64,000 nucleotides of DNA from Haliotis rufescens. Taxonomy: Eukaryota. The notes under the pieces were generated by a model. The model worked only from the letters and a program-made list of their open reading frames with translations. It did not search any database and was not told where the DNA came from. Position numbers and translations under genes: made by a program. Below, one piece after another: positions 12,871 through 64,000 of this stretch (the first letter of the stretch is position 1; every line of letters starts with the position of its first letter). The stretch covers positions 40,548,001 through 40,612,000 of the forward strand of contig NW_025964112.1 in assembly GCF_023055435.1 (NCBI RefSeq). Reading direction: 5' to 3'.

Positions 12871-12971
12871 TGGTGGTCAGGGATACCGAGAATTGTTTTC
12901 TGTTGCAATCACCTGCCATCTTGTATCTTCACGTTTGGTAAAAAAGGTTTTGGACAACAGCTTCCCGGACG

Positions 12972-27700: not shown

Positions 27701-29050
27701 ATGGAGATATGTGAATCTGGGCTGTGTCTCCTTGACAATGACCACTTAGAAAACACTACAAACACTTTCAACAGAGACAACGAAGGTAAGTTGATACTCA
27801 ATGACATTACAAATACAATCGATAAAGGCAAATAAATGAACAAATAATATTCATTGATCCGTTTAATATACTATCAGGATCAGAGAATGTTATTCGTGTC
27901 TATGAAACTATTCAAATCTCTTTTAAATATATATAACACGCACATGAATCAACTCTTTATGACAAATGTATGTAACATTTTCAGATGCAAGATCGTCGGG
28001 CTATGAATCGTGTGACTCATTCACCCAGACCTCGTCACCACCTTCAACTCCATCCTCCAAAGTCAGAGCCTCATCTAGCGGCCACAAGGAGATAATGATG
28101 TACAGCAACATGGCCGACCTGTCAGAAAGTCTACAGTACATCACTAGTATGCCGGAGTTGTGTGACGTCACTTTTCTAGTTGGCAACCGGCAGCTTCCCA
28201 TTCATGGAGTTAAAGCAATCCTGGCTACCAGGAGCAGGTAAATATCCCATACAACTGAAACACGTCAATGGTCTTTTATTCGGAAACTTTTAGAAGTAAA
28301 CACCATGATAAATGTGTGTATTCTAAATTAAAGCACATGCAACAACATGATTATCTGGCAGTAAGGATTTAAGAAAGTAGCAATGCTTCAACACATACAT
28401 TTCATCCCTGTCCTTTTATAATTATTCACACGTGCAGATGTGAGTTTCCTATGAGATCTGTAGATGAAAATATACATAGTTTCCCTTCATCTTTCCAGGG
28501 TTTTCTATCAGATGATCTTGCATCACCAGAGGAAGGTCACAGAGTCGGTGAAACCTAAATCTCGACTGAGGATGAGAGCCAAGTCGTCAGCTGTCAATCT
28601 GCACAGCAAACTCCAGATCCCAATCCCAGACTACGACCATGTTGTCTTTTCCAGTCTTCTTAACTTCTTACACTCCGGCCGAGTTCGAGTACAACTTGGA
28701 ACAGTCACAGGTGAGCAGTCAAATGTGTGTGGAGGAAGAAAAAACTTTCTGTTTATGACATTCGATATTGAAGCGTTTACTCCTTTACTGTAATAAACTG
28801 TAATATCAACAGTGAATTATAATATGTTATTATGAATATAACATCCTCATATCAATGGCTGCTTCTTATTTGAACAGGTTTATTCTGTGCTGCCATAGAA
28901 TTTGGACTGAAGGATCTGCAGAAAGCATGCTGGGACTTCTTAAAACGGTGTGAAGGTGAAGATCAGAAGAGGGCTTTGATGACGTCAACACAACACTACC
29001 TTAAGAAGAAGGGAGCTCAGAAAATCTTGTCCCAAGTGTGCAGGTTGTGA
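27701..29050 (+). CDS. BTB/POZ-domain protein (serine-enriched-protein-like), copy 1 (divergent 5' end), 240 aa
   Basis: Exons 27701-27785, 27985-28237, 28499-28710, 28878-29050 (723 nt, GT-AG). BTB motifs: LCDVTFLVG, IHGVKAILATRSRVF, IPDYDHVVFSSLLNFLHSGRV, LFCAAIEFGLKDLQKACWDFL. TATAAAA at 27597 and AATAAA at ~29594. An alternative last splice at CAA|GTGTGC cannot be excluded. Confidence 0.85.
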
Positions 29051-31689
29051 TTATTTGAGGACCGTAATTGCTCTGGTTTCCTATAATACATCTCTTGGAC
29101 ACAGTCAAACTGTGGAACCATTAGTGCTTCAATATACATTTTCAACGACTGACCATTGGCTGGCATTCCGACGGCCCGGGCGAAGCTGATCAAAGTGGAA
29201 ACTGATGTCACTTCCTATTGATTGTTAACTGACGCACAATACCAGAGATGGAGATCCCTGATTTTTCTTACACAAGCGAGAAAATCAGACAGCGAGTTGA
29301 ACTTAATGCTCCTTTAAATAGTATGTCGGTTATTCTTCCGTGTGTCAGCTTAGTGAGAGACGAAAATTTGAATTGACGCAGAGGATATCTCTGAAAGGAA
29401 TATGATCGGAACGAAGCTTCGACCAGAGTGTCCTGGCACGTCTAAGGGATGTAATTATGCATAGAGAACTATGGCGTAAATATTACTGTGTAACACTACT
29501 TAATATTGTAAGTCTCTTAGATTGTACATGTGCTATATATGTATTGTTATCCCTTTATGGGAGTTGTTCGTTTTGTTCTTGTTGTCAAATGCAAATAAAA
29601 TTTAAATCAAATCATGATCCTGTGTTGTCTGCCTGATGTTCCATTTCAGGAAGACCTGATGTCAATATTGTCTAGTTATTCTATTACGTGTGACAATTTG
29701 ACATTCTTCAGGAAAAGGAATATTTTTCTAATTCTTTAATGTTTTCCTAGAGTTTATTATCACATCTTGAAGCCACTACTTTATGATTGGCCATTACATG
29801 CCTACGTACCTGAAGGTAACTAGGGCCTTGTCTGTTCTGATAGCAAAAGGCTGGATTTAACATGATAAGCGCGCAGTAGAAAGAAAAATAGTAGAAATGA
29901 AGGAATAGCAGAGAAGTAAATGGATAGTTGTTGATGAGAAAGTGATGAATTTGATCAAATATGCTGCTTCTATCCCATTTGGACAGAACAAATATCTACA
30001 TTTTACACATTGCAAGCATATAAAATACCGGCAAAAGATCATTTGGTCCAGCGCTGGAGATATTCTCTATTTTAAACAAAACCGCTGCAATAAATAGTAC
30101 AGCATTATCATTCAACCGTATCTCATCTAACATGCGTCAACTTTTGTAACTGCATTACTCTGAACCTTCATTCCAGTTGTATCGTTTTTCTTACCACAAA
30201 TCTGCAATTTCTCTCACCGTTCATCATTTGGAAATGATTAAATAAACATTTTCTATCAGTTCATTTTCCCGACATGCATGTATCTCATCCAATAACAGAT
30301 ATAAATCGAACACGCCAAGTTTTTGACTAAATGTAAACTATTTCCATACACAACATATTTAATTCAAATGCCAGAAAAGACATGTAAATCTGTCAAAAGA
30401 CGGGGAAAAGAGGCAGTGAACATGATATCATGTTGGTAGACATGGAATGGTTTCAGAAGTGATGGAATTCGAATATGATTAGTAAACACAACATGGTGCC
30501 AGTAGTCACAGAGATGTTCCTTGTATCTGTTCATATAGAACAAGATATCCGTTATCATTAATTAATGCTGTACTTGGAAGATGTAGACTGATTAAAATAC
30601 AGAATAACTGTGTTTGGTCCCCAAAAACTATCCGATGCCGATATTCAGTCACTTTTTAAGAATATTCTTTATCGCATACAGCAGTTGTTTTATGCACCCG
30701 ACATGCTATGGAGAACAATCATATCATTATTATCTGTATTATTTGTCAATACCCTCAATAATATAATCACTGTACAATTCCAACCATGCACAATATTTTC
30801 CAATTGTTATGATTGAGCAATAACTGCAAATTAATAATTTCCGCTGAGTTTCTTCACACACTTTATTCAGTATATAAAGTATATGCTCTTTGTGTCAGAC
30901 TTCAATACAAAGTGCATCTATGAAATGTAACTGTTGTTTGAACATAGAGAAAATATCCATTTCACAAGAACACAAATACATTTACAGTGTTAAACAGATT
31001 GTTATAGATTATAGGATATCGGGTGTATGATAACCTTATTAGGTTCTATAACATCGCCATCAACTCAAAAGCATGTGCATAGGGAAACTGTTGCACTGGA
31101 TTTAATGATCTTAAACTTATCAATTGAAATAGACAAGTTGATCATCCACACTATCTTCTTATCAATTACCAGTTGTTTTAGTTAACTACGGAAACAAACT
31201 CACTTGTGTATGTAATGAGATATTTGGTAAGAAAACAAGCACGTTTCTTACCATATTGATTTCTTACTTCTTCAATAAATACGGATTAAACATATTAGTA
31301 CAGTACATACAGTACGTTCATAGTATCTAATAGTTCATCTTTCTAACGGATATCCATTTTAAACACCCTTGACGCAATTTTAGGATTGTTTCTTGGAATA
31401 GGAATAGTTTTCTTCAGGTGGCGCTTTTCGTTTTATAAAGAAGCCATCATCTCGGCTCTTCATTTACGGAACGTGTGACTTTATCCACACAGCGTGTGCG
31501 GAATGAATGAGCCTTGCATGGTGCATAGTCAGAAGATTCCTTTCTTGAACAAATTCCGGAAAAGATGGATGCCACTTACTTAGTGTCAAACGCAAACAAA
31601 CTTCATTCCACTTTAGATAATTGTCAGAACATAGGTTTAAGTTTCAATGACGACTCCCGACATCACAGTAATTACAATGACCGTAAGTT

Positions 31690-32055
31690 CACTGACGTCA
31701 ACAGCGTTTTCAATCTGTTTAAATCATTTCCGAATGCTAATTCAACTAATTGAATAGTAAAAATCACTGGACGCAAATACCTTACCTAATCTGATTATGT
31801 TCTATTGTTTGTAAAGGATTAACTATTGATCGCTAATTTGATACTTAACGGCCTTTAATCCCCCGATCCCAACATGCTCTTTGGCACTTGTCACGTGACC
31901 ACAGCAGCAAAAGTAAACATTACAGTGTCACGTTCCCAATAATGCTAAGAGCGTTGGCGTGACATTGTAAAGTGATCAGTGTCACTTTGCGTTTGGCCAC
32001 GTGGTATTGGAAAAGGGGTATTAAACGTGATTTGTAGAGAGCCTAACATCACTGT
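31690..32055 (+). promoter_or_regulatory. Proximal promoter of the BTB gene (copy 2 shown; repeated in each unit)
   Basis: CRE palindrome TGACGTCA at 31693-31700, GTCACGTGAC at 31890-31899 and CCACGTGG at ~31998. The TATA position reads TATTAAA (TATAAAA in copies 1 and 8). Inr-like TCACTG lies ~30 bp downstream and the ATG is at 32123. Confidence 0.6.
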
Positions 32056-32122
32056 TCTCTGGCAATTGAACATACAGCTAATGTTCATTCTTGTAACCGG
32101 ATAACTCATACAACTAAGCAGC

Positions 32123-33510
32123 ATGAAGAGATGTGAATCTGAGCTCTGTCTCCTTGACAGCGACCTCTTAGAAAACACAACAAACACGTACAACAGAGAT
32201 AGCGAAGGTGAGTTAATACTCAATGGTATTATGTATGTAATCGATAAAGTCAAATAAATGAACACATAATATTCGTTGTTCCGTTCAGTATGCTCTCAGC
32301 ATAAAAAATACTCGTTCTGAAGAAAACATAAAAAACTTCATCTTTTATATGAAACTATGCAAAGCTCTTTCAAAATATATCTTACTTGCGCATGAAACAA
32401 GTGTCCATGTCAAATGAATGGCTAAATTTATGTAACATTTTCAGATGCAAGATCGTCGGGCTATGAATCGTGTGACTCATTCACCCAGGCCCCGTCACCA
32501 CCTTCAACTCCATCCTCCAAGGTCAGAGCCTCATCTAGCGGCCACAAGGAGGTAATGATGTACAGCAACATGGCCGACCTGTCAGAAAGTCTACAGTACA
32601 TCACTAGTATGCCGGAGTTGTGTGACGTCACTTTTCTAGTTGGCAACCGGCAGCTTCCCATTCATGGAGTTAAAGCAATCCTGGCTACCAGGAGCAGGTA
32701 AATATCCCATACAACTGAAACACGCCAATTGTCTTTTATTCGGAAACTTTTAGAAGTAAACACCGTGATAAATGTGTGTATTCCAAATTAAAGCACATGC
32801 AACAACATGATTATCTGGCAGTAAGGATTTAAGAAAGTAGCGATGCTTCAACACATACATTTCATCCCTGCCCTTTTATTATTATTCACACGTGCAGATA
32901 TGAGTTTCCTATGAGATCTGTAGATGAAAATATACATAGTTTCCCTTCATCTTTCCAGGGTTTTCTATCAGATGATCTTGCATCACCAGAGGAAGGTCAC
33001 AGAGTCGGTGAAACCTAAATCTCGACTGAGGATGAGAGCCAAGTCGTCAGCTGTCAATCTGCACAGCAAACTCCAGATCCCAATCCCAGACTACGACCAT
33101 GTTGTCTTTTCCAGTCTTCTTAACTTCTTACACTCCGGCCGAGTTCGAGTACAACTTGGAACAGTCACAGGTGAGCAGTCAAATGTGTGTGGAGGAAGAA
33201 AAAACTTTCTGTTTATGACATTCGATATTGAAGCGTTTACTCCTTTACTGTAATAAACTGTAATATCAACAGTGAATTATAATATGTTATTATGAATATA
33301 ACATCCTCATATCAATGGCTGCTTCTTATTTGAACAGGTTTATTCTGTGCTGCCATAGAATTTGGACTGAAGGATCTGCAGAAAGCATGCTGGGACTTCT
33401 TAAAACGGTGTGAAGGTGAAGATCAGAAGAGGGCTTTGATGACGTCAACACAACACTATCTTAAGAAGAAGGGAGCTCAGAAAATCTTGTCCCAAGTGTG
33501 CAGGTTGTGA
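32123..33510 (+). CDS. BTB/POZ-domain protein, copy 2
   Basis: Exons 32123-32207, 32445-32697, 32959-33170, 33338-33510. Intact; starts MKRCESELCLLDSDLL. Confidence 0.85.
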
Positions 33511-36500
33511 TTATTTGAGGACCGTAATTGCTCTGGTTTCCTATAATATATCTCTTGGACACAGTCAAACTGTGGAACCATTAGTGCTTCAATATACATT
33601 TTCAACGACTGACCATTGGCTGGCATTCCGACGGCCCTGGCGAAGCTGATCAAAGTGGAAACTGACGTCACTTCCTAGTGATTGTTAACTGACACACAAT
33701 ACCAGAGATGGAGATCCCTGATTTTTCTTACACAACGAGAAAATCAGACAGCGAGTTGAACTTAATGCTCCTTTAAATAGTATGTCGGTTATTCTTCCGT
33801 GTGTCAGCTTAGTGAGAGACGAAAATTTGAATTGACGCAGAAGATATCACTGAAAGGAATATGATCGGAACGAAGCTTCGACCAGAGTGTCCTGGCACGT
33901 CTAAGGGATGTAACTATGCATAGAGAACTATGGCGTAAATATTACTGTGTAACACTACTTAATATTGTAAGTCTCTTAGATTGTACATGTGCTATATATG
34001 TATTGTTATCCCTTTATGGGAGTTGTTCGTTTTGTTCTTGTTGTCAAATGCAAATAAAATTTAAATCAAATCATGATCCTGTGTTGTCTGCCTGATGTTC
34101 CATTTCAGGAAGACCTGATGTCAATATTGTCTAGTTATTCTATTACGTGTGACAATTTGACATTCTTCAGGAAAAGGAATATTTTTCTAATTCTTTAATG
34201 TTTTCCTAGAGTTTATTATCACATCTTGAAGCCACTACTTTATAATTGGCCATTACATGCCTACGTACCTGAAGGTAACTAGGGCCTTGTCTGTTCTGAT
34301 AGCAAAAGGCTGGATTTAACATGATAAGCGCGCAGTAGAAAGAAAAATAGTAGAAATGAAGGAATAGCAGAGAAGTAAATGGATAGTGGTTGATGAGAAA
34401 GTGATGAATTTGATCAAATATGCTGCTTCTATCCCATTTGGACAGAACAAATATCTACATTTTACACATTGCAAGCATATAAAATACCGGCAAAAGATCA
34501 TTTGGTCCAGCGCTGGAGATATTCTCTATTTTAAACAAAACCGCTGCAATAAATAGTACAGCATTATCATTCAACCGTATCTCATCTAACATGCGTCAAC
34601 TTTTGTAACTGCATTACTCTGAACCTTCATTCCAGTTGTATCGTTTTTCTCACCACAAATCTGCAATTTCTCTCACCGTTCATCATTTGGAAATGATTAA
34701 ATAAACATGTTCTATCAGTTCATTTTCCCGACATGCATGTATCTCATCCAATAACAGATATAAATCGAACACGCCAAGTTTTTGACTAAATGTAAACTAT
34801 TTCCATACACAACATATTTAATTCAAATGCCAGAAAAGACATGTAAATCTGTCAAAAGACGGGGAAAAGAGGCAGTGAACATGATATCATGTTGGTAGAC
34901 ATGGAATGGTTTCAGAAGTGATGGAATTCGAATATGATTAGTAAACACAACATGGTGCCAGTAGTCACAGAGATGTTCCTTGTATCTGTTCATATAGAAC
35001 AAGATATCCGTTATCATTAATTAATGCTGTACTTGGAAGATGTAGACTGATTAAAATACAGAATAACTGTGTTTGGTCCCCAAAAACTATCCGATGCCGA
35101 TATTCAGTCACTTTTTAAGAATATTCTTTATCGCATACAGCAGTTGTTTTATGCACCCGACATGCTATGGAGAACAATCATATCATTATTATCTGTATTA
35201 TTTGTCAATACCCTCAATAATATAATCACTGTACAATTCCAACCATGCACAATATTTTCCAATTGTTATGATTGAGCAATAACTGCAAATTAATAATTTC
35301 CGCTGAGTTTCTTCACACACTTTATTCAGTATATAAAGTATATGCTCTTTGTGTCAGACTTCAATACAAAGTGCATCTATGAAATGTAACTGTTGTTTGA
35401 ACATAGAGAAAATATCCATTTCACAAGAACACAAATACATTTACAGTGTTAAACAGATTGTTATAGATTATAGGATATCGGGTGTATGATAACCTTATTA
35501 GGTTCTATAACATCGCCATCAACTCAAAAGCATGTGCATAGGGAAACTGTTGCACTGGATTTAATGATCTTAAACTTATCAATTGAAATAGACAAGTTGA
35601 TCATCCACACTATCTTCTTATCAATTACCAGTTGTTTTAGTTAACTACGGAAACAAACTCACTTGTGTATGTAATGAGATATTTGGTAAGAAAACAAGCA
35701 CGTTTCTTACCATATTGATTTCTTACTTCTTCAATAAATACGGATTAAACATATTAGTACAGTACATACAGTACGTTCATAGTATCTAATAGTTCATCTT
35801 TCTAACGGATATCCATTTTAAACACCCTTGACGCAATTTTAGGATTGTTTCTTGGAATAGGAATAGTTTTCTTCAGGTGGCGCTTTTCGTTTTATAAAGA
35901 AGCCATCATCTCGGCTCTTCATTTACGGAACGTGTGACTTTATCCACACAGCGTGTGCGGAATGAATGAGCCTTGCATGGTGCATAGTCAGAAGATTCCT
36001 TTCTTGAACAAATTCCGGAAAAGATGGATGCCACTTACTTAGTGTCAAACGCAAACAAACTTCATTCCACTTTAGATGATTGTCAGAACATAGGTTTAAG
36101 TTTCAATGACGACTCCCGACATCACAGTAATTACAATGACCGTAAGTTCACTGACGTCAACAGCGTTTTCAATCTGTTTAAATCATTTCCGAATGCTAAT
36201 TCAACTAATTGAATAGTAAAAATCACTGGACGCAAATACCTTACCTAATCTGATTATGTTCTATTGTTTGTAAAGGATTAACTATTGATCGCTAATTTGA
36301 TACTTAACGGCCTTTAATCCCCCGATCCCAACATGCTCTTTGGCACTTGTCACGTGACCACAGCAGCAAAAGTAAACATTACAGTGTCACGTTCCCAATA
36401 ATGCTAAGAGCGTTGGCGTGACATTGTAAAGTGATCAGTGTCACTTTGCGTTTGGCCACGTGGTATTGGAAAAGGGGTATTAAACGTGATTTGTAGAGAG

Positions 36501-36581
36501 CCTAACATCACTGTTCTCTGGCAATTGAACATACAGCTAATGTTCATTCTTGTAACCGGATAACTCATACAACTAAGCAGC

Positions 36582-37969
36582 ATGAAGAGATGTGAATCTG
36601 AGCTCTGTCTCCTTGACAGCGACCTCTTAGAAAACACAACAAACACGTACAACAGAGATAGCGAAGGTGAGTTAATACTCAATGGTATTATGTATGTAAT
36701 GGATAAAGTCAAATAAATGAACACATAATATTCGTTGTTCCGTTCAGTATGCTCTCAGCATAAAAAATACTCGTTCTGAAGAAAACATAAAAAACTTCAT
36801 CTTTTATATGAAACTATGCAAAGCTCTTTCAAAATATATCTTACTTGCGCATGAAACAAGTGTCCATGTCAAATGAATGGCTAAATTTATGTAACATTTT
36901 CAGATGCAAGATCGTCGGGCTATGAATCGTGTGACTCATTCACCCAGGCCCCGTCACCACCTTCAACTCCATCCTCCAAGGTCAGAGCCTCATCTAGCGG
37001 CCACAAGGAGGTAATGATGTACAGCAACATGGCCGACCTGTCAGAAAGTCTACAGTACATCACTAGTATGCCGGAGTTGTGTGACGTCACTTTTCTAGTT
37101 GGCAACCGGCAGCTTCCCATTCATGGAGTTAAAGCAATCCTGGCTACCAGGAGCAGGTAAATATCCCATACAACTGAAACACGCCAATTGTCTTTTATTC
37201 GGAAACTTTTAGAAGTAAACACCGTGATAAATGTGTGTATTCCAAATTAAAGCACATGCAACAACATGATTATCTGGCAGTAAGGATTTAAGAAAGTAGC
37301 AATGCTTCAACACATACATTTCATCCCTGCCCTTTTATTATTATTCACACGTGCAGATATGAGTTTCCTATGAGATCTGTAGATGAACATATACATAGTT
37401 TCCCTTCATCTTTCCAGGGTTTTCTATCAGATGATCTTGCATCACCAGAGGAAGGTCACAGAGTCGGTGAAACCTAAATCTCGACTGAGGATGAGAGCCA
37501 AGTCGTCAGCTGTCAACCTGCACAGCAAACTCCAGATCCCAATCCCAGACTACGACCATGTTGTCTTTTCCAGTCTTCTTAACTTCTTACACTCCGGCCG
37601 AGTTCGAGTACAACTTGGAACAGTCACAGGTGAGCAGTCAAATGTGTTTGGAGGAAGAAAAAACTTTCTGTTTATGACATTCGATATTGTTGCGTTTACT
37701 CCTTTACTGTAATAAACTGTAATATCAACAGTGAATTATAATATGTTATTATGAATATAACATCCTCATATCAATGGCTGCTTCTTATTTGAACAGGTTT
37801 ATTCTGTGCTGCCATAGAATTTGGACTGAAGGATCTGCAGAAAGCATGCTGGGACTTCTTAAAACGGTGTGAAGGTGAAGATCAGAAGAGGGCTTTGATG
37901 ACGTCAACACAACACTACCTTAAGAAGAAGGGAGCTCAGAAAATCTTGTCCCAAGTGTGCAGGTTGTGA
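36582..37969 (+). CDS. BTB/POZ-domain protein, copy 3
   Basis: Same 4-exon structure, offset 4459 from copy 2. ATG at 36582; TGA ends at 37969. Confidence 0.85.
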
Positions 37970-40900
37970 TTATTTGAGGACCGTAATTGCTCTGGTTTCC
38001 TATAATATATCTCTTGGACACAGTCAAACTGTGGAACCATTAGTGCTTCAATATACATTTTCAACGACTGACCACTGGCTGGCATTCCGACGGCCCGGGC
38101 GAAGCTGATCAAAGTGGAAACTGATGTCACTTCCTATTGATTGTTAACTGACACACAATACCAGAGATGGAGATCCCTGATTTTTCTTACACAACGAGAA
38201 AATCAGACAGCGAGTTGAACTTAATGCTCCTTTAAATAGTATGTCGGTTATTCTTCCGTGTGTCAGCTTAGTGAGAGACGAAAATTTGAATTGAAGATAT
38301 CACTGAAAGGAATATGATCGGAACGAAGCTTCGACCAGAGTGTCCTGGCACGTCTAAAGGATGTAACTATGCATAGAGAACTATGGCATAAATATTACTG
38401 TGTAACACTACTTAATATTGTAAGTCTCTTAGATTGTACATGTGCTATATATGTATTGTTATCCCTTTATGGGAGTTGTTCGTTTTGTTCTTGTTGTCAA
38501 ATGCAAATAAAGTTTAAATCAAATCATGATCCTGTGTTGTCTGCCTGATGTTCCATTTCAGGAAGACCTGATGTCAATATTGTCTAGTTATTCTATTACG
38601 TGTGACAATTTGACATTCTTCAGGAAAAGGAATATTTTTCTAATTCTTTAATGTTTTCCTGGAGTTTATTATCACATCTTGAAGCCACTACTTTATAATT
38701 GGCCATTACATGCCTACGTACCTGAAGGTAACTAGGGCCTTGTCTGTTCTGATAGCAAAAGGCTGGATTTAACATGATAAGCAGTAGAAAGAAAAATAGT
38801 AGAAATGAAGGAATAGCAGAGAAGTAAATGGATAGTGGTTGATGAGAAAGTGATGAATTTGATCAAATATGCTGCTTCTATCCCATTTGGACAGAACAAA
38901 TATCTACATTTTACACATTGCAAGCATATAAAATACCGGCAAAAGATCATTTGGTCCAGCGCTGGAGATATTCTCTATTTTAAACAAAACCGCTGCAATA
39001 AATAGTACAGCATTATCATTCAACCGTATCTCATCTAACATGCGTCAACTTTTGTAACTGCATTACTCTGAACCTTCATTCCAGTTGTATCGTTTTTCTT
39101 ACCACAAATCTGCAATTTCTCTCACCGTTCATCATTTGGAAATGATTAAATAAACATGTTCTATCAGTTCATTTTCCCGACATGCATGTATCTCATCCAA
39201 TAACAGATATAAATCGAACACGCCAAGTTTTTGACTAAATGTAAACTATTTTCATACACAACATATTTAATTCAAATGCCAGAAAAGACATGTAAATCTG
39301 TCAAAAGACGGGGAAAAGAGGCAGTGAACATGACATCATGTTGGTAGACATGGAATGGTTTCAGAAGTGATGGAATTCGAATATGATTAGTAAACACAAC
39401 ATGGTGCCAGTAGTCACAGAGATGTTCCTTGTATCTGTTCATATAGAACAAGATATCCGTTATCATTAATTAATGCTGTACTTGGAAGATGTAGACTGAT
39501 TAAAATACAGAATAACTGTGTTTGGTCCCCCAAAACTATCCGATGCCGATATTCAGTCACTTTTTAAGAATATTCTTTATCGCATATGGTTTGTCCATTT
39601 AATAAATAAGCAGTGGTTTGTTGTTTTCATTTATATCCATATTTTTATATTATGTCCATATTTCATGTACAATGCAAATTACCACTGTTATAAATAGCAT
39701 ACCACACATGTTAACAACAAATATAACGCGAATCTATTGCAGTCAAAGCAACATCTTGCAATATTCATTCTCAACGTGTCTCTATAATGTTTTTATATTT
39801 GTTATTGGGTATGTTTTCACAATTTAAGGTGTATACATACATTTTAATGTCGTAAAGTTTAACTCAAGTTTGACTCCATGCCTCATTTCTAAGTAAGATG
39901 AATTCCACATCGTTTATCTGAATCCAGTTTCGATAATGACATTTCCACAACATCCAGTGCGACACGAGCTCACACAGCAGTTGTTTTATGCACCCGACAT
40001 GCTATGGAGAACAATCATATCATTATTATCTGTATTATTTGTCAATACCCTCAATAATATAATCACTGTACAATTCCAACCATGCACGAAAAGAATATTT
40101 TCCAATTGTTGTGATTGAGCAATAACTGCAAATTAATCATTTCCGCTGAGTTTCTTCACACACTTTATTCAGTATATAAAGTATATGCTCTTTGTGTCAG
40201 ACTTCAATACAAAGTGCATCTATGAAATGTAACTGTTGTTTGAACATAGAGAAAATATCCATTTCACAAGAACACAAATACATTTACAGTGTTAAACAGA
40301 TTGTTATAGATTATAGGATATCGGGTGTATGATAACCTTATTAGGTTCTATAACATCGCCATCAACTCAAAAGCATGTGCATAGGGAAACTGTTGCACTG
40401 GATTTAATGATCTTAAACTTATCAATTGAAATAGACAAGTTGATCATCCACACTATCTTCTTATCAATTACCAGTTGTTTTAGTTAACTACGGAAACAAA
40501 CTCACTTGTGTATGTAATGAGATATTTGGTAAGAAAACAAGCACGTTTCTTACCATATTGATTTCTTACTTCTTCAATAAATACGGATTAAACATATTAG
40601 TACAGTACATACAGTACGTTCATAGTATCTAATAGTTCATCTTTCTAACGGATATCCATTTTAAACACCCTTGACGCAATTTTAGGATTGTTTCTTGGAA
40701 TAGGAATAGTTTTCTTCAGGTGGCGCTTTTCGTTTTATAAAGAAGCCATCATCTCGGCTCTTCATTTACGGAACGTGTGACTTTTTCCACACAGCGTGTG
40801 CGGAATGAATGAGCCTTGCATGGTGCATAGTCGGAAGATTCCTTTCTTGAACAAATTCCGGAAAAGATGGATGCCACTTACTTAGTGTCAAACGCAAACA

Positions 40901-50600: not shown

Positions 50601-51136
50601 CAAACGCAAACAAACTTCATTCCACTTTAGATTATTGTCAGAACATAGGTTTAAGTTTCAATGACGACTCCCGACATCACAGTAATTACAATGATCGTAA
50701 GTTCACTGACGTCAACAGCGTTTTCAATCTGTTTAAATCATTTCCGAATGCTAATTCAACTAATTGAATAGTAAAAATCACTGGGCGCAAATACCTTACC
50801 TAATCTGATTATGTTCTATTGTTTGTAAAGGATTAACTATTGATCGCTAATTTGATACTTAACGGCCTTTAATCCCCCGATCCCAACATGCTCTTTGGCA
50901 CTTGTCACGTGACCACAGCAGCAAAAGTAAACATTACAGTGTCACGTTCCCAATAATGCTAAGAGCGTTGGCGTGACATTGTAAAGTGATCAGTGTCACT
51001 TTGCGTTTGGCCACGTGGTATTGGAAAAGGGGTATTAAACGTGATTTGTAGAGAGCCTAACATCACTGTTCTCTGGCAATTGAACATACAGCTAATGTTC
51101 ATTCTTGTAACCGGATAACTCATACAACTAAGCTGC

Positions 51137-52524: not shown

Positions 52525-55500
52525 TTATTTGAGGACCGTAATTGCTCTGGTTTCCTATAATATATCTCTTGGACACAGTCAAACTGTGGAACCATTAGTG
52601 CTTCAATATACATTTTCAACGACTGACCATTGGCTGGCATTCCGACGGCCCGGGCGAAGCTGATCAAAGTGGAAACTGATGTCACTTCCTATTGATTGTT
52701 AACTGACACACAATACCAGAGATGGAGATCCCTGATTTTTCTTACACAACGAGAAAATCAGACAGCGAGTTGAACTTAATGCTCCTTTAAATAGTATGTC
52801 GGTTATTCTTCCGTGTGTCAGCTTAGTGAGAGACGAAATTTTGAATTGACGCAGAAGATATCACTGAAAGGAATATGATCGGAACGAAGCTTCGACCAGA
52901 GTGTCCTGGCACGTCTAAGGGATGTAACTATGCATAGAGAACTATGGCGTAAATATTACTGTGTAACACTACTTAATATTGTAAGTCTCTTAGATTGTAC
53001 ATGTGCTATATATGTATTGTTATCCCTTTATGGGAGTTGTTCGTTTTGTTCTTGTTGTCAAATGCAAATAAAATTTAAATCAAATCATGATCCTGTGTTG
53101 TCTGCCTGATGTTCCATTTCAGGAAGACCTGATGTCAATATTGTCTAGTTATTCTATTACGTGTGACAATTTGACATTCTTCAGGAAAAGGAATATTTTT
53201 CTAATTCTTTAATGTTTTCCTAGAGTTTATTATCACATCTTGAAGCCACTACTTTATAATTGGCCATTACATGCCTACGTACCTGAAGGTAACTAGGGCC
53301 TTGTCTGTTCTGATAGCAAAAGGCTGGATTTAACATGATAAGCAGTAGAAAGAAAAATAGTAGAAATGAAGGAATAGCAGAGAAGTAAATGGATAGTGGT
53401 TGATGAGAAAGTGATGAATTTGATCAAATATGCTGCTTCTATCCCATTTGGACAGAACAAATATCTACATTTTACACATTGCAAGCATATAAAATACCGG
53501 CAAAAGATCATTTGGTCCAGCGCTGGAGATATTCTCTATTTTAAACAAAACCGCTGCAATAAATAGTACAGCATTATCATTCAACCGTATCTCATCTAAC
53601 ATACGTCAACTTTTGTAACTGCATTACTCTGAACCTTCATTCCAGTTGTATCGTTTTTCTTACCACAAATCTGCAATTTCTCTCACCGTTCATCATTTGG
53701 AAATGATTAAATAAACATGTTCTATCAGTTCATTTTCCCGACATGCATGTATCTCATCCAATAACAGATATAAATCGAACACGCCAAGTTTTTGACTAAA
53801 TGTAAACTATTTTCATACACAACATATTTAATTCAAATGCCAGAAAAGACATGTAAATCTGTCAAAAGACGGGGAAAAGAGGCAGTGAACATGACATCAT
53901 GTTGGTAGACATGGAATGGTTTCAGAAGTGATGGAATTCGAATATGATTAGTAAACACAACATGGTGCCAGTAGTCACAGAGATGTTCCTTGTATCTGTT
54001 CATATAGAACAAGATATCCGTTATCATTAATTAATGCTGTACTTGGAAGATGTAGACTGATTAAAATACAGAATAACTGTGTTTGGTCCCCAAAAACTAT
54101 CCGATGCCGATATTCAGTCACTTTTTAAGAATATTCTTTATCGCATATGGTTTGTCCATTTAATAAATAAGCAGTGGTTTGTTGTTTTCATTTATATCCA
54201 TATTTTTATATTATGTCCATATTTCATGTACAATGCAAATTACCACTGTTATAAATAGCATACCACACATGTTAACAACAAATATAACGCGAATCTATTG
54301 CAGTCAAAGCAACATCTTGCAATATTCATTCTCAACGTGTCTCTATAATGTTTTTATATTTGTTATTGGGTATGTTTTCACAATTTAAGGTGTATACATA
54401 CATTTTAATGTCGTAAAGTTTAACTCAAGTTTGACTCCATGCCTCATTTCTAAGTAAGATGAATTCCACATCGTTTATCTGAATCCAGTTTCGATAATGA
54501 CATTTCCACAACATCCAGTGCGACACGAGCTCACACAGCAGTTGTTTTATGCACCCGACATGCTATGGAGAACAATCATATCATTATTATCTGTATTATT
54601 TGTCAATACCCTCAATAATATAATCACTGTACAATTCCAACCATGCACGAAAAGAATATTTTCCAATTGTTGTGATTGAGCAATAACTGCAAATTAATCA
54701 TTTCCGCTGAGTTTCTTCACACACTTTATTCAGTATATAAAGTATATTATGCTCTTTGTGTCAGACTTCAATACAAAACGCATCTATGAAATGTAACTGT
54801 TGTTTGAACATAGAGAAAATATCCATTTCACAAGAACACAAATACATTTACAGTGTTAAACAGATTGTTATAGATTATAGGATATCGGGTGTATGATAAC
54901 CTTTTTAGGTTCTATAACATCGCCATCAACTCAAAAGCATGTGCATAGGGAAACTGTTGCACTGGATTTAATGATCTTAAACTTATCAATTGAAATAGAC
55001 AAGTTGATCATCCACACTATCTTCTTATCAATTACCAGTTGTTTTAGTTAACTACGGAAACAAACTCACTTGTGTATGTAATGAGATATTTGGTAAGAAA
55101 ACAAGCACGTTTCTTACCATATTGATTTCTTGCTTCTTCAATAAATACGGATTAAACATATTAGTACAGTACATACAGTACGTTCATAGTATCTAATAGA
55201 CTAAGTTCATCTTTCTAACGGATATCCATTTTAAACACCCTTGACGCAATTTTAGGATTGTTTCTTGGAATAGGAATAGTTTTCTTCAGGTGGCGCTTTT
55301 CGTTTTATAAAGAAGCCATCATCTCGGCTCTTCATTTACGGAACGTGTGACTTTATCCACACAGCGTCCGCGGAATGAATGAGCCTTGCATGGTGCATAG
55401 TCAGAAGATTCCTTTCTTGAACAAATTCCGGAAAAGATGGATGCCACTTACTCAGTGTCAAACGCAAACAAACTTCATTCCACTTTAGATGATTGTCAGT

Positions 55501-55980
55501 TTCAATGACGACTCCCGACATCACAGTAATGACAATGACCGTAAGTTCACTGACGTCAACAGCGTTTTCAATCTGTTTAAATCATTTCCGAATGCTAATT
55601 CAACTAATTGAATAGTAAAAATCACTGGACGCAAATACCTTACCTAATCTGATTATGTTCTATTGTTTGTAAAGGATTAACTATTGATCGCTAATTTGAT
55701 ACTTAACGGCCTTTAATCCCCCGATCCCAACATGCTCTTTGGCACTTGTCACGTGACCACAGCAGCAAAAGTAAACATTACAGTGTCACGTTCCCAATAA
55801 TGCTAAGAGCGTTGGCGTGACATTGTAAAGTGATCAGTGTCACTTTGCGTTTGGCCACGTGGTATTGGAAAAGGGGTATTAAACGTGATTTGTAGAGAGC
55901 CTAACATCACTGTTCTCTGGCAATTGAACATACAGCTAATGTTCATTCTTGTAACCGGATAACTCATACAACTAAGCAGC

Positions 55981-57374
55981 ATGAAGAGATGTGAATCTGA
56001 GCTCTGTCTCCTTGACAGCGACCTCTTAGAAAACACAACAAACACGTACAACAGAGATAGCGAAGGTGAGTTAATACTCAATGGTATTATGTATGTAATC
56101 GATAAAGTCAAATAAATGAACACATAATATTTGTTGTTCCGTTCAGTATGCTCTCAGCATAAAAAATACTTGTTCTGAAGAAAACATAAAAAACTTCATC
56201 TTTTATATGAAACTATGCAAAGCTCTTTCTAAATATATCTTACTTGCGCATGAAACAAGTGTCCATGTCAAATGAATGGCTAAATTTATGTAACATTTTC
56301 ATGCTCAGATGCAAGATCGTCGGGCTATGAATCGTGTGACTCATTCACCCAGGCCCCGTCACCACCTTCAACTCCATCCTCCAAGGTCAGAGCCTCATCT
56401 AGCGGCCACAAGGAGGTAATGATGTACAGCAACATGGCCGACCTGTCAGAAAGTCTACAGTACATCACTAGTATGCCGGAGTTGTGTGACGTCACTTTTC
56501 TAGTTGGCAACCGGCAGCTTCCCATTCATGGAGTTAAAGCAATCCTGGCTACCAGGAGCAGGTAAATATCCCATACAACTGAAACACGCCAATTGTCTTT
56601 TATTCGGAAACTTTTAGAAGTAAACACCGTGATAAATGTGTGTATTCCAAATTAAAGCACATGCAACAACATGATTATCTGGCAGTAAGGATTTAAGAAA
56701 GTAGCAATGCTTCAACACATACATTTCATCCCTGCCCTTTTATTATTATTCACACGTGCAGATATGAGTTTCCTATGAGATCTGTAGATGAAAATATACA
56801 TAGTTTCCCTTCATCTTTCCAGGGTTTTCTATCAGATGATCTTGCATCACCAGAGGAAGGTCACAGAGTCGGTGAAACCTAAATCTCGACTGAGGATGAG
56901 AGCCAAGTCGTCAGCTGTCAATCTGCACAGCAAACTCCAGATCCCAATCCCAGACTACGACCATGTTGTCTTTTCCAGTCTTCTTAACTTCTTACACTCC
57001 GGCCGAGTTCGAGTACAACTTGGAACAGTCACAGGTGAGCAGTCAAATGTGTTTGGAGGAAGAAAAAACTTTCTGTTTATGACATTCGATATTGTTGCGT
57101 TTACTCCTTTACTGTAATAAACTGTAATATCAACAGTGAATTATAATATGTTATTATGAATATAACATCCTCATATCAATGGCTGCTTCTTATTTGAACA
57201 GGTTTATTCTGTGCTGCCATAGAATTTGGACTGAAGGATCTGCAGAAAGCATGCTGGGACTTCTTAAAACGGTGTGAAGGTGAAGATCAGAAGAGGGCTT
57301 TGATGACGTCAACACAACACTACCTTAAGAAGAAGGGAGCTCAGAAAATCTTGTCCCAAGTGTGCAGGTTGTGA
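55981..57374 (+). CDS. BTB/POZ-domain protein, copy 7
   Basis: Same structure, with a 6-bp insertion (atgctc) just before the intron 1 acceptor AG. Confidence 0.83.
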
Positions 57375-60300
57375 TTATTTGAGGACCGTAATTGCTCTGG
57401 TTTCCTATAATATATCTCTTGGACACAGTCAAACTGTGGAACCATTAGTGCTTCAATATACATTTTCAACGACTGACCACTGGCTGGCATTCCGACGGCC
57501 CGGGCGAAGCTGATCAAAGTGGAAACTGATGTCACTTCCTATTGATTGTTAACTGACACACAATACCAGAGATGGAGATCCCTGATTTTTCTTACACAAC
57601 GAGAAAATCAGACAGCGAGTTGAACTTAATGCTCCTTTAAATAGTATGTCGGTTATTCTTCCGTGTGTCAGCTTAGTGAGAGACGAAAATTTGAATTGAC
57701 GCAGGAGATATCACTGAAAGGAATATGATCGGAACGAAGCTTCGACCAGAGTGTCCTGGCACGTCTAAGGGATGTAACTATGCATAGAGAACTATGGCGT
57801 GAATATTACTGTGTAACACTACTTAATATTGTAAGTCTCTTAGATTGTACATGTGCTATATATGTATTGTTATCCCTTTATGGGAGTTGTTCGTTTTGTT
57901 CTTGTTGTCAAATGCAAATAAAATTTAAATCAAATCATGATCCTGTGTTGTCTGCCTGATGTTCCATTTCAGGAAGACCTGATGTCAATATTGTCTAGTT
58001 ATTCTATTACGTGTGACAATTTGACATTCTTCAGGAAAAGGAATATTTTTCTAATTCTTTAATGTTTTCCTAGAGTTTATTATCACATCTTGAAGCCACT
58101 ACTTTATAATTGGCCATTACATGCCTACGTACCTGAAGGTAACTAGGGCCTTGTCTGTTCTGATAGCAAAAGGCTGGATTTAACATGATAAGCAGTAGAA
58201 AGAAAAATAGTAGAAATGAAGGAATAGCAGAGAAGTAAATGGATAGTGGTTGATGAGAAAGTGATGAATTTGATCAAATATGCTGCTTCTATCCCATTTG
58301 GACAGAACAAATATCTACATTTTACACATTGCAAGCATATAAAATACCGGCAAAAGATCATTTGGTCCAGCGCTGGAGATATTCTCTATTTTAAACAAAA
58401 CCGCTGCAATAAATAGTACAGCATTATCATTCAACCGTATCTCATCTAACATACGTCAACTTTTGTAACTGCATTACTCTGAACCTTCATTCCAGTTGTA
58501 TCGTTTTTCTTACCACAAATCTGCAATTTCTCTCACCGTTCATCATTTGGAAATGATTAAATAAACATGTTCTATCAGTTCATTTTCCCGACATGCATGT
58601 ATCTCATCCAATAACAGATATAAATCGAACACGCCAAGTTTTTGACTAAATTTTAACTATTTTCATACACAACATATTTAATTCAAATGCCAGAAAAGAC
58701 ATGTAAATCTGTCAAAAGACGGGGAAAAGAGGCAGTGAACATGATATCATGTTGGTAGACATGGAATGGTTTCAGAAGTGATGGAATTCGAATATGATTA
58801 GTAAACACAACATGGTGCCAGTAGTCACAGAGATGTTCCTTGTATCTGTTCATATAGAACAAGATATCCGTTATCATTAATTAATGCTGTACTTGGAAGA
58901 TGTAGACTGATTAAAATACAGAATAACTGTGTTTGGTCCCCAAAAACTATCCGATGCCGATATTCAGTCACTTTTTAAGAATATTCTTTATCGCATATGG
59001 TTTGTCCATTTAATAAATAAGCAGTGGTTTGTTGTTTTCATTTATATCCATATTTTTATATTATGTCCATATTTCATGTACAATGCAAATTACCACTGTT
59101 ATAAATAGCATACCACACATGTTAACAACAAATATAACGCGAATCTATTGCAGTCAAAGCAACATCTTGCAATATTCATTCTCAACGTGTCTCTATTATG
59201 TTTTATATTTGTTATTTGGTGGGTTTTTTCACAATTTAAGGTGTATACATACATTTTAATGTCGTAAAGTTTAACTCAAGTTTGACTCCATGCCTCATTT
59301 CTAAGTAAGATTAATTCCACATCGTCTATCTGAATCCAGTTTCGATAATGACATTTCCACAACATCCAGTGCGACACGAGCTCACACAGCAGTTGTTTTA
59401 TGCACCCGACATGCTATGGAGAACAATCATATCATTATTATCTGTATTATTTGTCAAAACCCTCAATAATATATACACTGTACAATTCCAACCATGCATG
59501 GAAAGAATATTTCCGAATTGTTGTGATTGAGCAACAACTGCAAATTAATAATTTCCGCTGAGTTTCTTCACACACTTTATTCAGTATATAAAGTATAATA
59601 TATTTTTTTATGCTCTTTGTGTCAGACTTCAATACAAAGTGCATCTATGAAATGTAACTGTTGTTTGAACATAGAGAAAATATCCATTTCACAAGAACAC
59701 AAATACATTTACAGTGTTAAACAAATTTAATGATTATAGGATATCGGGTGTATGATAACCTTATTAGGTTCTATATCATCGCCATCAACTCAAAAGCATG
59801 TGCATAGGGAAACTGTTGCACTGGATTTAATGATCTTAAACTTATCAATTGAAATAGACAAGTTGATCATCCACACTATCTTGTTATCAATTACCAGTTG
59901 TTTTAGTTAACTACGGAAACAAAGCCACTTGTGTATGTAATGAGATATTTGGTAAGAAGACGAGCACGTTTCTTACCATATTGATTTCTTACTTCTTCAA
60001 TAAACACGAAATAAACATATTGGTACGGTACATACAGTACGTTCATAGTATCTAATAGTTCATCTTTCTAACGGATATCCATTTTAAACACCCTTGACGC
60101 AATTTTAGGATTGTTTCTTGGAATAGGAATAGTTTTCTTCAGGTGGCGCTTTTCGTTTTATAAAGAAGCCATCATCTCGGCTCTTCATTTACGGAACGTG
60201 TGACTTTATCCACACAGCGTGTGCGGAATGAATGAGCCTTGCATGGTGCATAGTCAGGAGGTTCCTTTCTTGAACAAATTCCGGAAAAGATGGATGCCAC

Positions 60301-61487
60301 TTACTCAGTGTCAAACGCAAACAAACTTCATTCCACTTTAGATGATTGTCAGAACACAGGTTTCATTGACGACTCCCGACATCACAGTAATTACAATGAC
60401 CGTAAGTTCACTGACGTCAGCAGCGTTTTCAATCTGTTTAAATCATTTCCGAATACTAATTCAACTAATTGAATAGTAAAAATCACAGATTGTTATAGTT
60501 TAAAGGATGTCGGGTGTTTAACTTTATTAGGTTCTATAACATTGCCATAAACTCAAAGGCATGTGCATAGGGAAACTGTTGGACTGGATTTAATTATCTT
60601 AAACTTATCAATTGTAATAGAGAAGTTGATCATCCACACTCTCTTGTTATCATTACCACTTGTTATAGTTAACTGCGAAAACTGTATGTAATGAGATATT
60701 TGGTAAGAAAATAAGCCCCTTTCTCAATATATGAATTTGATACTTCTTCAATAAATACTAAATAAACCTACTAGGCATAGTACGTTAATTGTATCTAATA
60801 GTTCATCTTTATGACAGATATCAATTTTAACCACCCTTGACGCAATTTTAGAATATTTTCTTGGAATTGAAAAAGTTTTCTTCAGGCGGCGCACTTCGCT
60901 GTAGAAAGAAGCCATCACCTTGACTCTTCATTTCCGGAACGTGTGACGTTATCCACAAATCGTGTGCGGGATGGATGTGGCTTTCCAGAACAAATTCTGG
61001 ATAAGATGGAGTGGATGCCACTTACTTACTGTCAAACTCAAACAAACTTCATTTCACTTTAGATGATTGTTAGAACACAGGTTTCATTGACGACTCCCGG
61101 GATCGCGGTAATTACAATGACCGTAAGTTCACTGACGTCAGTAGCGTTTTCAATCTGTCTAAATGATTTTCGAATGTTAATCCGCATAATTGAATAGTAA
61201 AAATCACTGGAACAAAATACCTTACCTACTCTCATTGTGTTCTATTGTTTGTAAAGGATTAACTATTGATCGCTAATTTGATGCTTAACGACCTTTAATC
61301 CCCCGATCCAAACATGCTCTTTGGCACTTGTCACGTGACCACAGCAGCAAAAGTAAACATTACAGAGTCACGTTCGTAATACTGCTAAGAGCGTTGGCGT
61401 GACATTATAAAGTGATCAGTGTCACTTTGCGTTTAGCCACGTGATATTGGAAAGGGGGTATAAAACGTGACTTGTAGAGAGCCTGGC

Positions 61488-62586
61488 CTCCAAACACACA
61501 GGTTTCGGAGTCCATACCACACAACCAACTAAAACTACACAATCCTTCCGACTCCCAAACAACCAATCAATATTCACGGCAGAACTAATGGGCATGGCCT
61601 CAGCCCTCCATAGTCAAGAATCCAAAAACCACAATAAAATCCTAATACTTACCGACTCCCTAAGTGGACTGCAAGCCCTCCAAAACAAAAATACCAAAAA
61701 CCGACCTAAATTAATAAATCTAATACTTAAAAGCTCCAACGACCTAACTAACGCAGGCAAACAAATAACCTTCTTGTGGATACCCGCCCACGTAGGAATA
61801 TACGGTAATGAAAACGCCGATAAGGCAGCTAAACTATCCCTCAAAATCCCAGAAATAAGCTTAAACTTACCCATCTCAAAATCAGAAATTAAAAGTGTAA
61901 ATAAGCAAAAAATCACCAAAAAATGGCATAACCTATATCTTAACTCAAATAGCCAAATCAAAAAGGTACTCAGCAAACCACTAACCAAACCAAAAATTCA
62001 CCATCCATCAAAAAAAATCGACAGAGTAATCACTAAACTCCAAACAGGACACACCAACCTAAATAACCACCTAAAAAAAATAAAAAAACATACTACAGGT
62101 AACTGCCCACACTGCAAACAACTAGAAACCCCAGAACACGCACTCATCTACTGCACACACTACCTAACACATCGAACCGCATTACAAACCACCCTCAATC
62201 TAAACAAGGCTCTCACTCTAGAAGCAATACTAAACCCACAAAATAAACTAGAAAACTTCAAGGCCTTAGGCGTATTCTTAATCAAAACGGAACTAATAAA
62301 ACGCATCTAAAAACACCATAATCCACCAAATCAAAATTACATAAACACACAAACATCCACCATACCCAGCTCCCTTAGTTCTCCTCCCCTACCCCATTGG
62401 CATCTATTCCAAATCTCAAAATTCCCAAATTCTATATAAGCAACCCCTAAAGCCCCCTCTTGGGTTGCGCACACCACTTTCGCCCCTTTCGGAAACACAT
62501 TAAATGGCCTGGCCGGGCCCGTGTGCGAAATACGCATCAGTCGGAAAGCGCACGTTAAATCTCCAAAGTAAGTAAGTAAGTAAGTA
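61488..62586 (+). mobile_element. 5'-truncated non-LTR retrotransposon (I-group/Nimb-like): RNase H domain, CCHC knuckle, 3' UTR and (TAAG)n tail
   Basis: RNase H motifs SIFTAEL, ILTDSLS and WIPAHVGIYGNENADKAAK. C-terminal LQTGH...CPHCKQLETPEHALIYC; stop at 62310. The tail is aagtaagtaag. Target-site duplication AGAGCCTGGC at 61478-61487 and 62587-62596. Absent from the other units. Confidence 0.93.
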
Positions 62587-62673
62587 AGAGCCTGGCATCA
62601 CTGTTCTCTGGCAATTGAACATACAGCTCATTTTCATTCTTGTAACCGGATAACTCATAAAACTTAGCAGCAT

Positions 62674-64000
62674 ATGAAGAGGTGTGAATCTGAGATCTGT
62701 CTACTTGATAACGACCTCTTAGAAAACACAATAAACACGTACAACAGAGATAGCGAAGGTGAGTTAATACTCCATGGTATTATGTATGCAATCGATAAAG
62801 TCAAATAAATGAAATTACATAATAATCATTGTTCCGTTCAGTATGCTATCAGCATTAAATAATACTTGTTGTTCTGAAGCAAGCTTAAACTAAATTCAAC
62901 TTTTAAATGAAACTATGCAAAGCTCTTTCAAAATATATCTTACTTGCGCATGGAACAACTCTCCAGGTCAAATGAATGGCTAAATTTAGGTAACATTTTC
63001 AGATGCAAGATCGTCGGGCTATGAATCGTGTGACTCATTCACCCAGACCCCGTCACCACCTTCAACTCCATCCTCCAAAGTCACAGCGTCATCTAGCGGC
63101 CACAAGGAGGTAATGGTGTACAGCAACATGACCGACCTGTCAGAAAGTCTGCAGTACATTACTAGTATGCCGGAGTTGTGTGACGTCACTTTTCTAGTTG
63201 GCCACCGGCAGCTTCCCGTTCATGGAGTTAAAGCAATCCTGGCTACCAGGAGCAGGTAAATATCCCATACAACTGAAACACGCCAATGGCGTATTATTCG
63301 GAAACTTTTAGAAGTAAAAGTTAATGTGTGTATTCCAAATTAAAGCACATGCAACAACATGGTTATCTGGCAGTAAGGATTTCCAAAAGTATCTGTGCTT
63401 CAACACATACATTTAATCCCGGCACTTTTATAATTATTCACCCAAGTAGATATGAGTTTCCTATGAGATCTGTAGTGGAAAATATAAATAGTTTTCCTTC
63501 ATCTTTCCAGGGTTTTCTATCAGATGATCTTGCATCACCAGAGGAAGGTCACCGAGTCGGTGGAACCCAAATCTCGACTGAGGATGAGAGCCAAGTCGTC
63601 AACTGTCAATCTGCACAGCAAACTCCAGATACCAGTCCCAGACTACGACCATGATGTCTTTTCCAGTCTTGTTAACTTCTTACACTCGGGTCGAGTTCGA
63701 GTACAACTAGGGACAGTCACAGGTAAGCAGTAAAATGTGTTTGAGGAAGAAAAACGTTTCTGCTTATGACATTCGATATTGAATCATTTACCCCTTTTCT
63801 ATAATAAACTGTAATATCAACACTGATTTATAAAAGGTTATTATACATAACATCACCATATCAATGGCTGCTTCTTATTTGTACAGGTTTATTCTGTGCT
63901 GCCATAGAATTTGGACTAAAAGATTTGCAGAAGGCATGCTGGGACTTCTTGAAACGGTGTGAAGGTGAAGATCAGAAGAAGGCTTTGATGGCGTCAACAC
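62674..64000 (+). CDS. BTB/POZ-domain protein, copy 8 (divergent; runs off the window end; promoter interrupted by a LINE)
   Basis: Exons 62674-62758, 63003-63255, 63511-63722 and 63887 to beyond 64000. The frame is intact as far as visible. Confidence 0.8.

Follow-up and report, generated by a model that had tools for sequence, protein, structure and literature searches.

The 64,000-nt stretch of Haliotis rufescens DNA analyzed here (contig NW_025964112.1 of assembly GCF_023055435.1, positions 40,548,001 to 40,612,000; hereafter the window) carries a tandem array of a small BTB-domain gene, of which eight copies were located. Comparisons with relatives suggest that the gene is a mollusc-specific, BACK-truncated member of the Gprs family, that its array is probably old and continually re-homogenized rather than the product of a one-off recent amplification, and that a conserved motif in the N-terminal arm of the protein, SSGY[ED]S, is likely a beta-TrCP phosphodegron. 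We propose, at what we judge to be an even chance of being right, that the gene encodes a BTB/3-box dimer that is unstable, controlled by a kinase and beta-TrCP, and made in pulses from an array of many copies, with the array size maintained for dose; it would act as a short-lived regulator with a dose-dependent effect. In this model, an acidic-primed kinase of the CK1/CK2 type would phosphorylate S33 and S37, beta-TrCP would go on to remove the dimer along with anything held by the BTB surface or the basic loop, and the approximately 8-10 gene copies would supply a fast and large pulse of the unstable protein.

Organization of the array

Self-alignment of the window revealed head-to-tail repeats with 98-99% identity over 27964-60486 and a further copy, 91% identical, that begins near 62.6 kb and extends to the window end. 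Alignments of the window to itself that reach 20 kb at 99% identity lie far above chance. Mapping of the four exons located gene copies with ATGs at 27701, 32123, 36582, 41425, 46274, 51137, 55981, and 62674. The exons are 85, 253, 212, and 173 nt in length, the introns are GT-AG throughout, and the product is 240 amino acids long. All coordinates are positions in the window on its forward strand, and copy 8 continues past the window end.

27701..29050 (+), copy 1 coding sequence (exons 27701-27785, 27985-28237, 28499-28710, and 28878-29050); protein P0034; splicing of intron 2 observed in X18 and X20
29051..29600 (+), copy 1 3' untranslated region, AATAAA at 29594; an X18 contig spans 28996-29546
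32123..33510 (+), copy 2 coding sequence, in the 4.46-kb unit type; protein P0036
36582..37969 (+), copy 3 coding sequence; protein P0036
41425..42812 (+), copy 4 coding sequence with S112N; protein P0033
46274..47661 (+), copy 5 coding sequence with S112N; protein P0033
51137..52524 (+), copy 6 coding sequence with A72T; protein P0032
55981..57374 (+), copy 7 coding sequence, small insertion at the intron 1 acceptor with AG retained; protein P0036
62674..64000 (+), copy 8, an older edge paralogue about 9% diverged; the window ends inside exon 4
27964..60486 (+), young homogenized block of head-to-tail repeats; units 1-2 measure 4.46 kb, those from unit 3 onward about 4.85 kb

An earlier prediction made from this DNA (the original prediction) had counted at least eight intact copies. 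Seven are complete, with ATG, splice sites, and an open 240-codon frame, while copy 8 is open for 221 codons up to the point where the window cuts it. The close similarity that had been noted among copies 2-7 was borne out, as they are mutually 0-2 amino acids and 0-4 coding nucleotides apart: copies 2, 3, and 7 encode one identical protein, copies 4 and 5 share S112N, and copy 6 has A72T. Against this group, copy 1 shows 10-11 amino acid differences, all within the first 65 residues, and copy 8 shows 15-17. Copy 1 is chimeric, combining an old promoter, exon 1, and intron 1 with a young body that begins at about 27964. The two unit types are related by length, the 4.85-kb type being the 4.46-kb type plus an extra segment of 385-390 bp.

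The proteins of copies 1-7 are letter-identical to the RefSeq Haliotis rufescens "serine-enriched protein-like" entries P0032, P0033, P0034, and P0036; hence, the genes of the array are already annotated, under an automatic name. For the copy 8 protein, no match was found among the stored proteins.

Protein architecture and family

An AlphaFold2 model built with 59 relatives (mean predicted local distance difference test score, pLDDT, of 81) left residues 1-60 unstructured and placed the BTB domain at 65-207. Helix 3 is prolonged to residue 129 and is followed by a low-confidence basic loop at about 130-150, in agreement with the earlier description of a BTB domain split by a basic loop, and two helices at 211-222 and 228-239 close the chain. 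Residues 72-240 of the model superpose on residues 184-324 of SPOP, a BTB/3-box construct (Z 13.3, root-mean-square deviation 3.6, 140 aligned), and on this basis the C-terminal helical tail is a 3-box, with the chain ending where the 3-box ends. BTB was the sole significant domain in Pfam (E 4e-16); no Kelch, MATH, zinc finger, or BACK domain was found in the Pfam scan, and no folded substrate-binding domain (Kelch, MATH, PHR) by either Pfam or predicted fold. The earlier label of a BTB-only protein therefore holds for the Pfam content and understates the anatomy, as the short helical tail is the 3-box.

The dimerization expected of BTB proteins was recovered in a predicted homodimer, with a score of 0.77 versus 0.00 for the best of three controls, contacts agreeing to at least 81%, and pLDDT of at least 83. 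The score passed a mark that, among microbial proteins, is attained by 21 of 30 solved pairs and by none of 23 single chains; 7 of 16 animal pairs attain it. Passing may reflect likeness to, or memory of, solved BTB dimers. The predicted assembly is a strand-swapped homodimer of the long-form BTB type.

The nearest non-mollusc relatives were Gprs-type BTB-BACK proteins, with approximately 31-38% identity over the BTB region. The BACK domain (PF07707) had no match in P0036 and five other short forms; it was present in P0010, P0091, and the chiton forms. Since the short forms lack BACK, they are regarded as a truncated subfamily and not as canonical Gprs members. Like Gprs, the "serine-enriched protein" (Drosophila gprs, P0091, and its deuterostome and chiton forms), the abalone protein has the PELCDVTFLVG start and an insertion at alpha3/beta4. 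It differs in that BACK is truncated beyond the 3-box and no Ser-rich C-terminal tail remains; instead, a disordered N-terminal arm carries SSGY[ED]S. In a quick tree of 45 core domains, the mollusc forms made up one clade (SH-aLRT, the Shimodaira-Hasegawa-like approximate likelihood ratio test, 99) that included one unnamed long form; within this tree, a weak branch (72) separated the 24 short forms from the rest, and BACK is retained in three chiton proteins. The truncation likely predates the gastropod-bivalve split, as named short forms came from both groups. A search for longer relatives of the abalone protein returned four matches, none a named mollusc, which says little about a long Gprs in abalone. 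In the ESM Atlas, the whole protein matched generic BTB clusters and residues 1-64 matched nothing above 0.80.

Two further observations were made among the relatives. Twelve of 35 non-redundant short relatives (P0056, P0165, P0007, P0008, P0206, and others) end in x-[ST]-x-[VIL], often ET-x-V, which we take to resemble the class I PDZ-binding motif; the window protein does not end in this way. In addition, P0233 is a 778-amino-acid protein in which a Rap-GAP domain is fused to a BTB domain related to the array family.

A degron-like motif in the N-terminal arm

The original prediction missed a conserved degron-like motif in the N-terminal arm of the protein.

32453..32470 (+), SSGYES codons (S32-S37) of copy 2; the motif occurs in each of the eight copies and is a predicted phosphodegron for beta-TrCP

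SSGY[ED]S is the most conserved feature of the arm. The pattern [SDTE][SD]G[YF]x[STED] was found in 23 of 30 non-redundant short forms versus 0.5 expected by shuffling, where the 30 share less than 50% mutual identity, have an arm of at least 30 residues, and come from a 59-row alignment chosen as short forms. With the stricter pattern SSG[YF][EDG]S, 50 of 66 N-termini of short forms matched in the redundant set, as against 0 of 34 from long forms. The array protein also matches the beta-TrCP degron pattern [DSTE][SD]G-x-x-[STED], and the match is both conserved and located in a low-confidence, unstructured segment of the model.

SSG-type beta-TrCP degrons appear in the accessible part of a review, including the SSGYFS of BIM and DEPTOR (PMC10317156). 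Similarly, degron 2 of PER2 is SSGYGS and is phosphorylated by CK1, and a degron-bearing subunit has been proposed to hasten the loss of its partners (PMC11223080, accessible part). The abalone arm shares with these proteins an SSG-Y-x-S within a disordered, acidic, Ser-rich context; it differs in that the protein bearing the putative degron has hardly any other functional domain. Taken together, the motif is likely a beta-TrCP phosphodegron. Several points weigh against this assignment: 7 of the 30 short relatives lack the motif, degron-like motifs in the tails of long forms overall amount to 9 in 131 versus 5.3 expected, with no clear enrichment, and SSGY[ED]S could instead dock a different partner. 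DSG-type motifs were seen in the tails of two of three chiton long forms, and a second, looser Leu-Leu-acidic motif lies upstream of SSGY[ED]S in 15 of 21 forms, a count made without a shuffle control.

Relationship to CUL3

The original prediction regarded the protein as a minimal CUL3 adaptor or decoy. In its fullest form, this alternative holds that the BTB and 3-box bind CUL3 while short motifs in the N-terminal arm recruit substrates or nothing. It is favored by the alignment to the SPOP BTB/3-box construct and by a chain that stops at the end of the 3-box, given that the 3-box increases CUL3 affinity and the remaining BACK is dispensable for binding (accessible parts of PMC3616122 and bioRxiv 461806). 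As in the BTB-3-box adaptors SPOP, KEAP1, KLHL3, and KLHL11, the abalone protein has a long-form BTB, a predicted strand-swapped dimer, and a 3-box. It differs from them in lacking MATH or Kelch, in having phi-x-E out of register, and in carrying a basic insertion at the main CUL3 contact.

The contact site itself speaks against the adaptor reading. In KLHL3, according to the available part of its structural study, the phi-x-E of the alpha3/beta4 loop makes the largest CUL3 contact, E85A severely disrupts binding, and the CUL3-contact region is electronegative and essential (PMC3616122). In the abalone protein, a prolonged helix and a basic disordered loop occupy this site, and the alpha3/beta4 loop is basic in most short forms. 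The phi-x-E motif was found in the SPOP register in 2 of 35 short forms and 0 of 10 long forms; within the range S+8 to S+18, it was found in 4 of the 35, the window protein included. At the register itself the window protein has Q123-x-K125, and a V-T-E match lies four residues downstream, which can be counted for the adaptor. The scarcity of phi-x-E in register and the basic insertion in its place make the adaptor reading doubtful, even with the 3-box kept, and we hold it as a minority possibility. CUL3 binding of the array protein, if it occurs, is probably weak or non-canonical.

Turnover of the array in abalone

A cluster look-up returned nine same-clade accessions for H. cracherodii, nine for H. 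asinina, six for H. rufescens, and one for H. rubra. The H. cracherodii set (XP_071101811 to 821) and the H. asinina set (XP_067687030 to 039) are each nearly uniform in sequence and each lie on a single contig. H. asinina is a member of the second main abalone lineage (PMC12627906, accessible part, in which no divergence date for the lineages was found). Seven distinct H. asinina proteins are 1-3 residues apart from one another and 30-36 from the window copies, and they form one clade (support 100/99); closeness within versus between species was compared for the other species at the level of proteins. The inner copies of H. cracherodii and the window are separated by four fixed residue differences. 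At the edges, the first H. cracherodii entry (P0031) and window copy 1 have two private residues in the first 18 positions, and the last H. cracherodii entry (P0038) and window copy 8 have four private residues in common.

Within the window, divergence fell into four age layers: a mean of 0.5% between inner units, 3-4% for the last spacer, about 9% for copy 8, and about 20% for the promoter, exon 1, and intron 1 of copy 1. The four-gamete test was failed by 46 of 171 pairs of informative sites, pointing to exchange among units. The pattern is one of concerted evolution with edge copies lagging, in which unequal crossing-over and gene conversion would renew the inner units and leave the edges behind. 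The recent amplification of the original prediction is thus true of the inner units alone, as same-family clusters occur in both abalone lineages, and the array as a whole is probably old and continually re-homogenized. Three points weigh against so old an array: the tandem order in H. cracherodii and H. asinina comes from consecutive accessions on one contig and not from DNA, one family member is listed for H. rubra, and the tree gives no support for grouping edge copies across species.

Selection on the gene is purifying, as the ratio of nonsynonymous to synonymous divergence (pN/pS) between copies 2 and 8 was 0.24 (Fisher p 2e-5). Positive selection of the kind seen in immune arms-race arrays was considered and rejected, with pN/pS of 0.23-0.43.

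Purifying selection on a single function would also be compatible with a copy number that is selectively neutral, where the array churns by unequal crossing-over like many invertebrate BTB clusters. Other clusters of the family exist in Lottia, Patella, and a second Haliotis location, going by accession runs, and the same-species expression seen was low. Tandem expansions of BTBD6-like genes are likewise reported in vent snails (PMC7736800), which resemble the abalone array as gastropod BTB gene clusters in tandem; they belong to another family by name, and homogenization and degrons are unmentioned in the accessible part of that article. Neutral churn agrees less well with the 6, 9, and 9 accessions kept in three species despite turnover, nor is any of the seven complete copies broken. 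We consider it rather unlikely. Dosage amplification, as the original prediction had it, is a plausible reading, and against our own proposal it should be said that selection on copy number is something we infer.

Additional clusters of the short family with consecutive identifiers were noted in Haliotis, Lottia, and Patella (P0004, P0005, P0046-P0050, P0052, P0054, P0055, P0057, and P0058).

Possible roles and their significance

If the proposal of an unstable, dose-dependent dimer is correct, gastropods and bivalves have an unstudied BTB-BACK subfamily that has been shortened to BTB/3-box and has acquired a beta-TrCP degron, and abalone maintain this degron-tagged BTB gene as a homogenized multi-copy array. 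Such arrays are better known for histone and rRNA genes than for genes of the ubiquitin system. The proposal makes a testable prediction that involves two serines and one partner, and the array offers a marker of copy number in a genus that is farmed and in part endangered. Should the degron prove false and the copy number neutral, the locus would be an ordinary invertebrate BTB cluster.

A bolder alternative is that the protein acts as an endogenous beta-TrCP trap, in which the dimer would display two phosphodegrons and either sequester beta-TrCP or pass it through the BTB/3-box to CUL3 for destruction. The analogy is rotavirus NSP1, which mimics a degron and draws beta-TrCP into a CUL3 ligase (PMC5574712, accessible part). 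In both cases, a single small protein would unite a degron-like motif with a possible link to CUL3. NSP1 differs in having a RING motif and not a BTB domain, and the comparison is one of analogy, with no homology claimed. We regard the trap as quite improbable; if true, the abalone array would be a gene-dosage dial on the output of the Skp1-Cullin-F-box ligase SCF(beta-TrCP), that is, on NF-kB, beta-catenin, and PER turnover, and would amount to a ligase-on-ligase switch that is encoded by the host and confined to gastropods and bivalves.

Tandem gastropod BTB clusters are already known (PMC7736800, accessible part) and the genes of this array are already annotated, while the subfamily with the degron-like motif is apparently undescribed. 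Our literature search, which left most subscription papers outside its reach, found no paper on the subfamily, its degron-like motif, or the homogenized array and, among the papers listed on gprs/CG18471, no functional one.

Read depth and transcripts

In the DNA run X1, three long contigs over one unit had depths of 120-128 and four flank contigs had depths of 9.6-13.7. One X1 contig connects 32420 back to 27964, which is a head-to-tail joint, and an X1 flank contig stops at 27988. The depth of approximately 10-fold over the flanks corresponds to roughly 5-10 copies, with the reservations that contig depth is not copy number and that heterozygosity of the flanks could bring the ratio down by half, to about 5. 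An array of a mere two or three copies, on which the original prediction would have foundered, is therefore excluded. The flanks of X1 differ from the window at 15 of 2,905 and 16 of approximately 950 bases; hence, X1 probably represents another individual or haplotype. That the array is an assembly over-expansion, or haplotypes set in tandem, is very unlikely: the inner-unit distance of 0.5% is no greater than these flank differences and mosaic units can arise from assembly, but the depth and head-to-tail joint in X1, the two unit lengths and four age layers, and the similar clusters in two other assemblies all stand against it.

Intron 2 was spliced (GT..AG) in contigs of the runs X18 and X20, a joint unlisted for the DNA run X1. 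In X18, from a related organism, the spliced contig had a depth of 73.5 and its 3' untranslated region reached 29546; 6 of 10 displayed coding differences of this transcript are common to copy 8. The X20 contig, from a same-species run with the same label as X1, differs from copy 1 at four sites in exon 2, one of which was displayed, and at none in the covered part of exon 3, which is the count expected for the copy 2/7 type, and it is without two copy 8 markers. Expression beyond copy 1, which the original prediction had made a matter for checking, is thus indicated by X20. Its weight is lessened by the depth of 2.7 for the X20 spliced contig and by the fact that the reading of X18 and X20 as RNA runs is a guess.

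Promoters and the insertion at copy 8

31693..32025 (+), copy 2 proximal promoter, with TGACGTCA at -430, CACGTG at -231 and -125, and a TATA-like site at -104 (motif matches only)
61478..62596 (+), 5'-truncated retrotransposon of the non-LTR (long terminal repeat) type, with an RNase H open reading frame at 61471-62310 (PF00075, E 8e-13) and a 10-bp target-site duplication (61478-61487 and 62587-62596)

The TGACGTCA site is retained in every copy, even in the 79%-identical promoter of copy 1, and two CACGTG sites are found in the promoters of copies 2-8, against backgrounds of 0.05 (TGACGTCA) and 0.09 (CACGTG) per 620 bp. The motifs are consistent with inducible expression and point to no particular signal, and the matches to a cAMP response element and an E-box are leads only. 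No consensus for NF-kB, AP-1, the interferon-stimulated response element, or the heat-shock element was found in the scan of the array promoters. A link to stress or immunity, raised in the original prediction, found nothing in its favor beyond these unspecific motifs. The three supplementary files of an abalone heat-stress synthesis (PMC12070547) gave no match to the gene name, where other identifiers are possible, and BTB and serine are unmentioned in the main text of a red-abalone stress paper (PMC11806381).

The retrotransposon, a 1,109-bp fragment of a long interspersed nuclear element, lies about 20 bases past the copy 8 TATA box and separates it from the copy 8 5' untranslated region. 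Copy 8 may be silenced by this insertion in the window; the copy 8 gene type is expressed elsewhere, as the X18 transcript from the related organism is copy 8-like. Upstream of copy 8, a partial duplication of promoter and spacer was found at 59383-61484, in which a 3-4% diverged unit fragment stops at 60486 and returns into an older, 85%-identical promoter.

Other features of the window

A 43-bp tandem repeat occupies 10626-12871 (52 copies, 93% matches). It is followed at 13312-20200 (+) by a multi-exon gene whose product combines cadherin-like repeats and a Thr-rich stretch with a domain resembling farnesoic-acid O-methyltransferase (PF12248, E 3e-8); it also has a probable membrane segment. 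An acidic, low-complexity open frame of 530 codons with a Lys-rich end lies at 21612-23204; it had no significant Pfam match and may be the last exon of the upstream gene. Finally, decayed transposase-like sequence at 25200-26150, presumably resembling Tc1/mariner, had no Pfam match and showed high depth in the runs.

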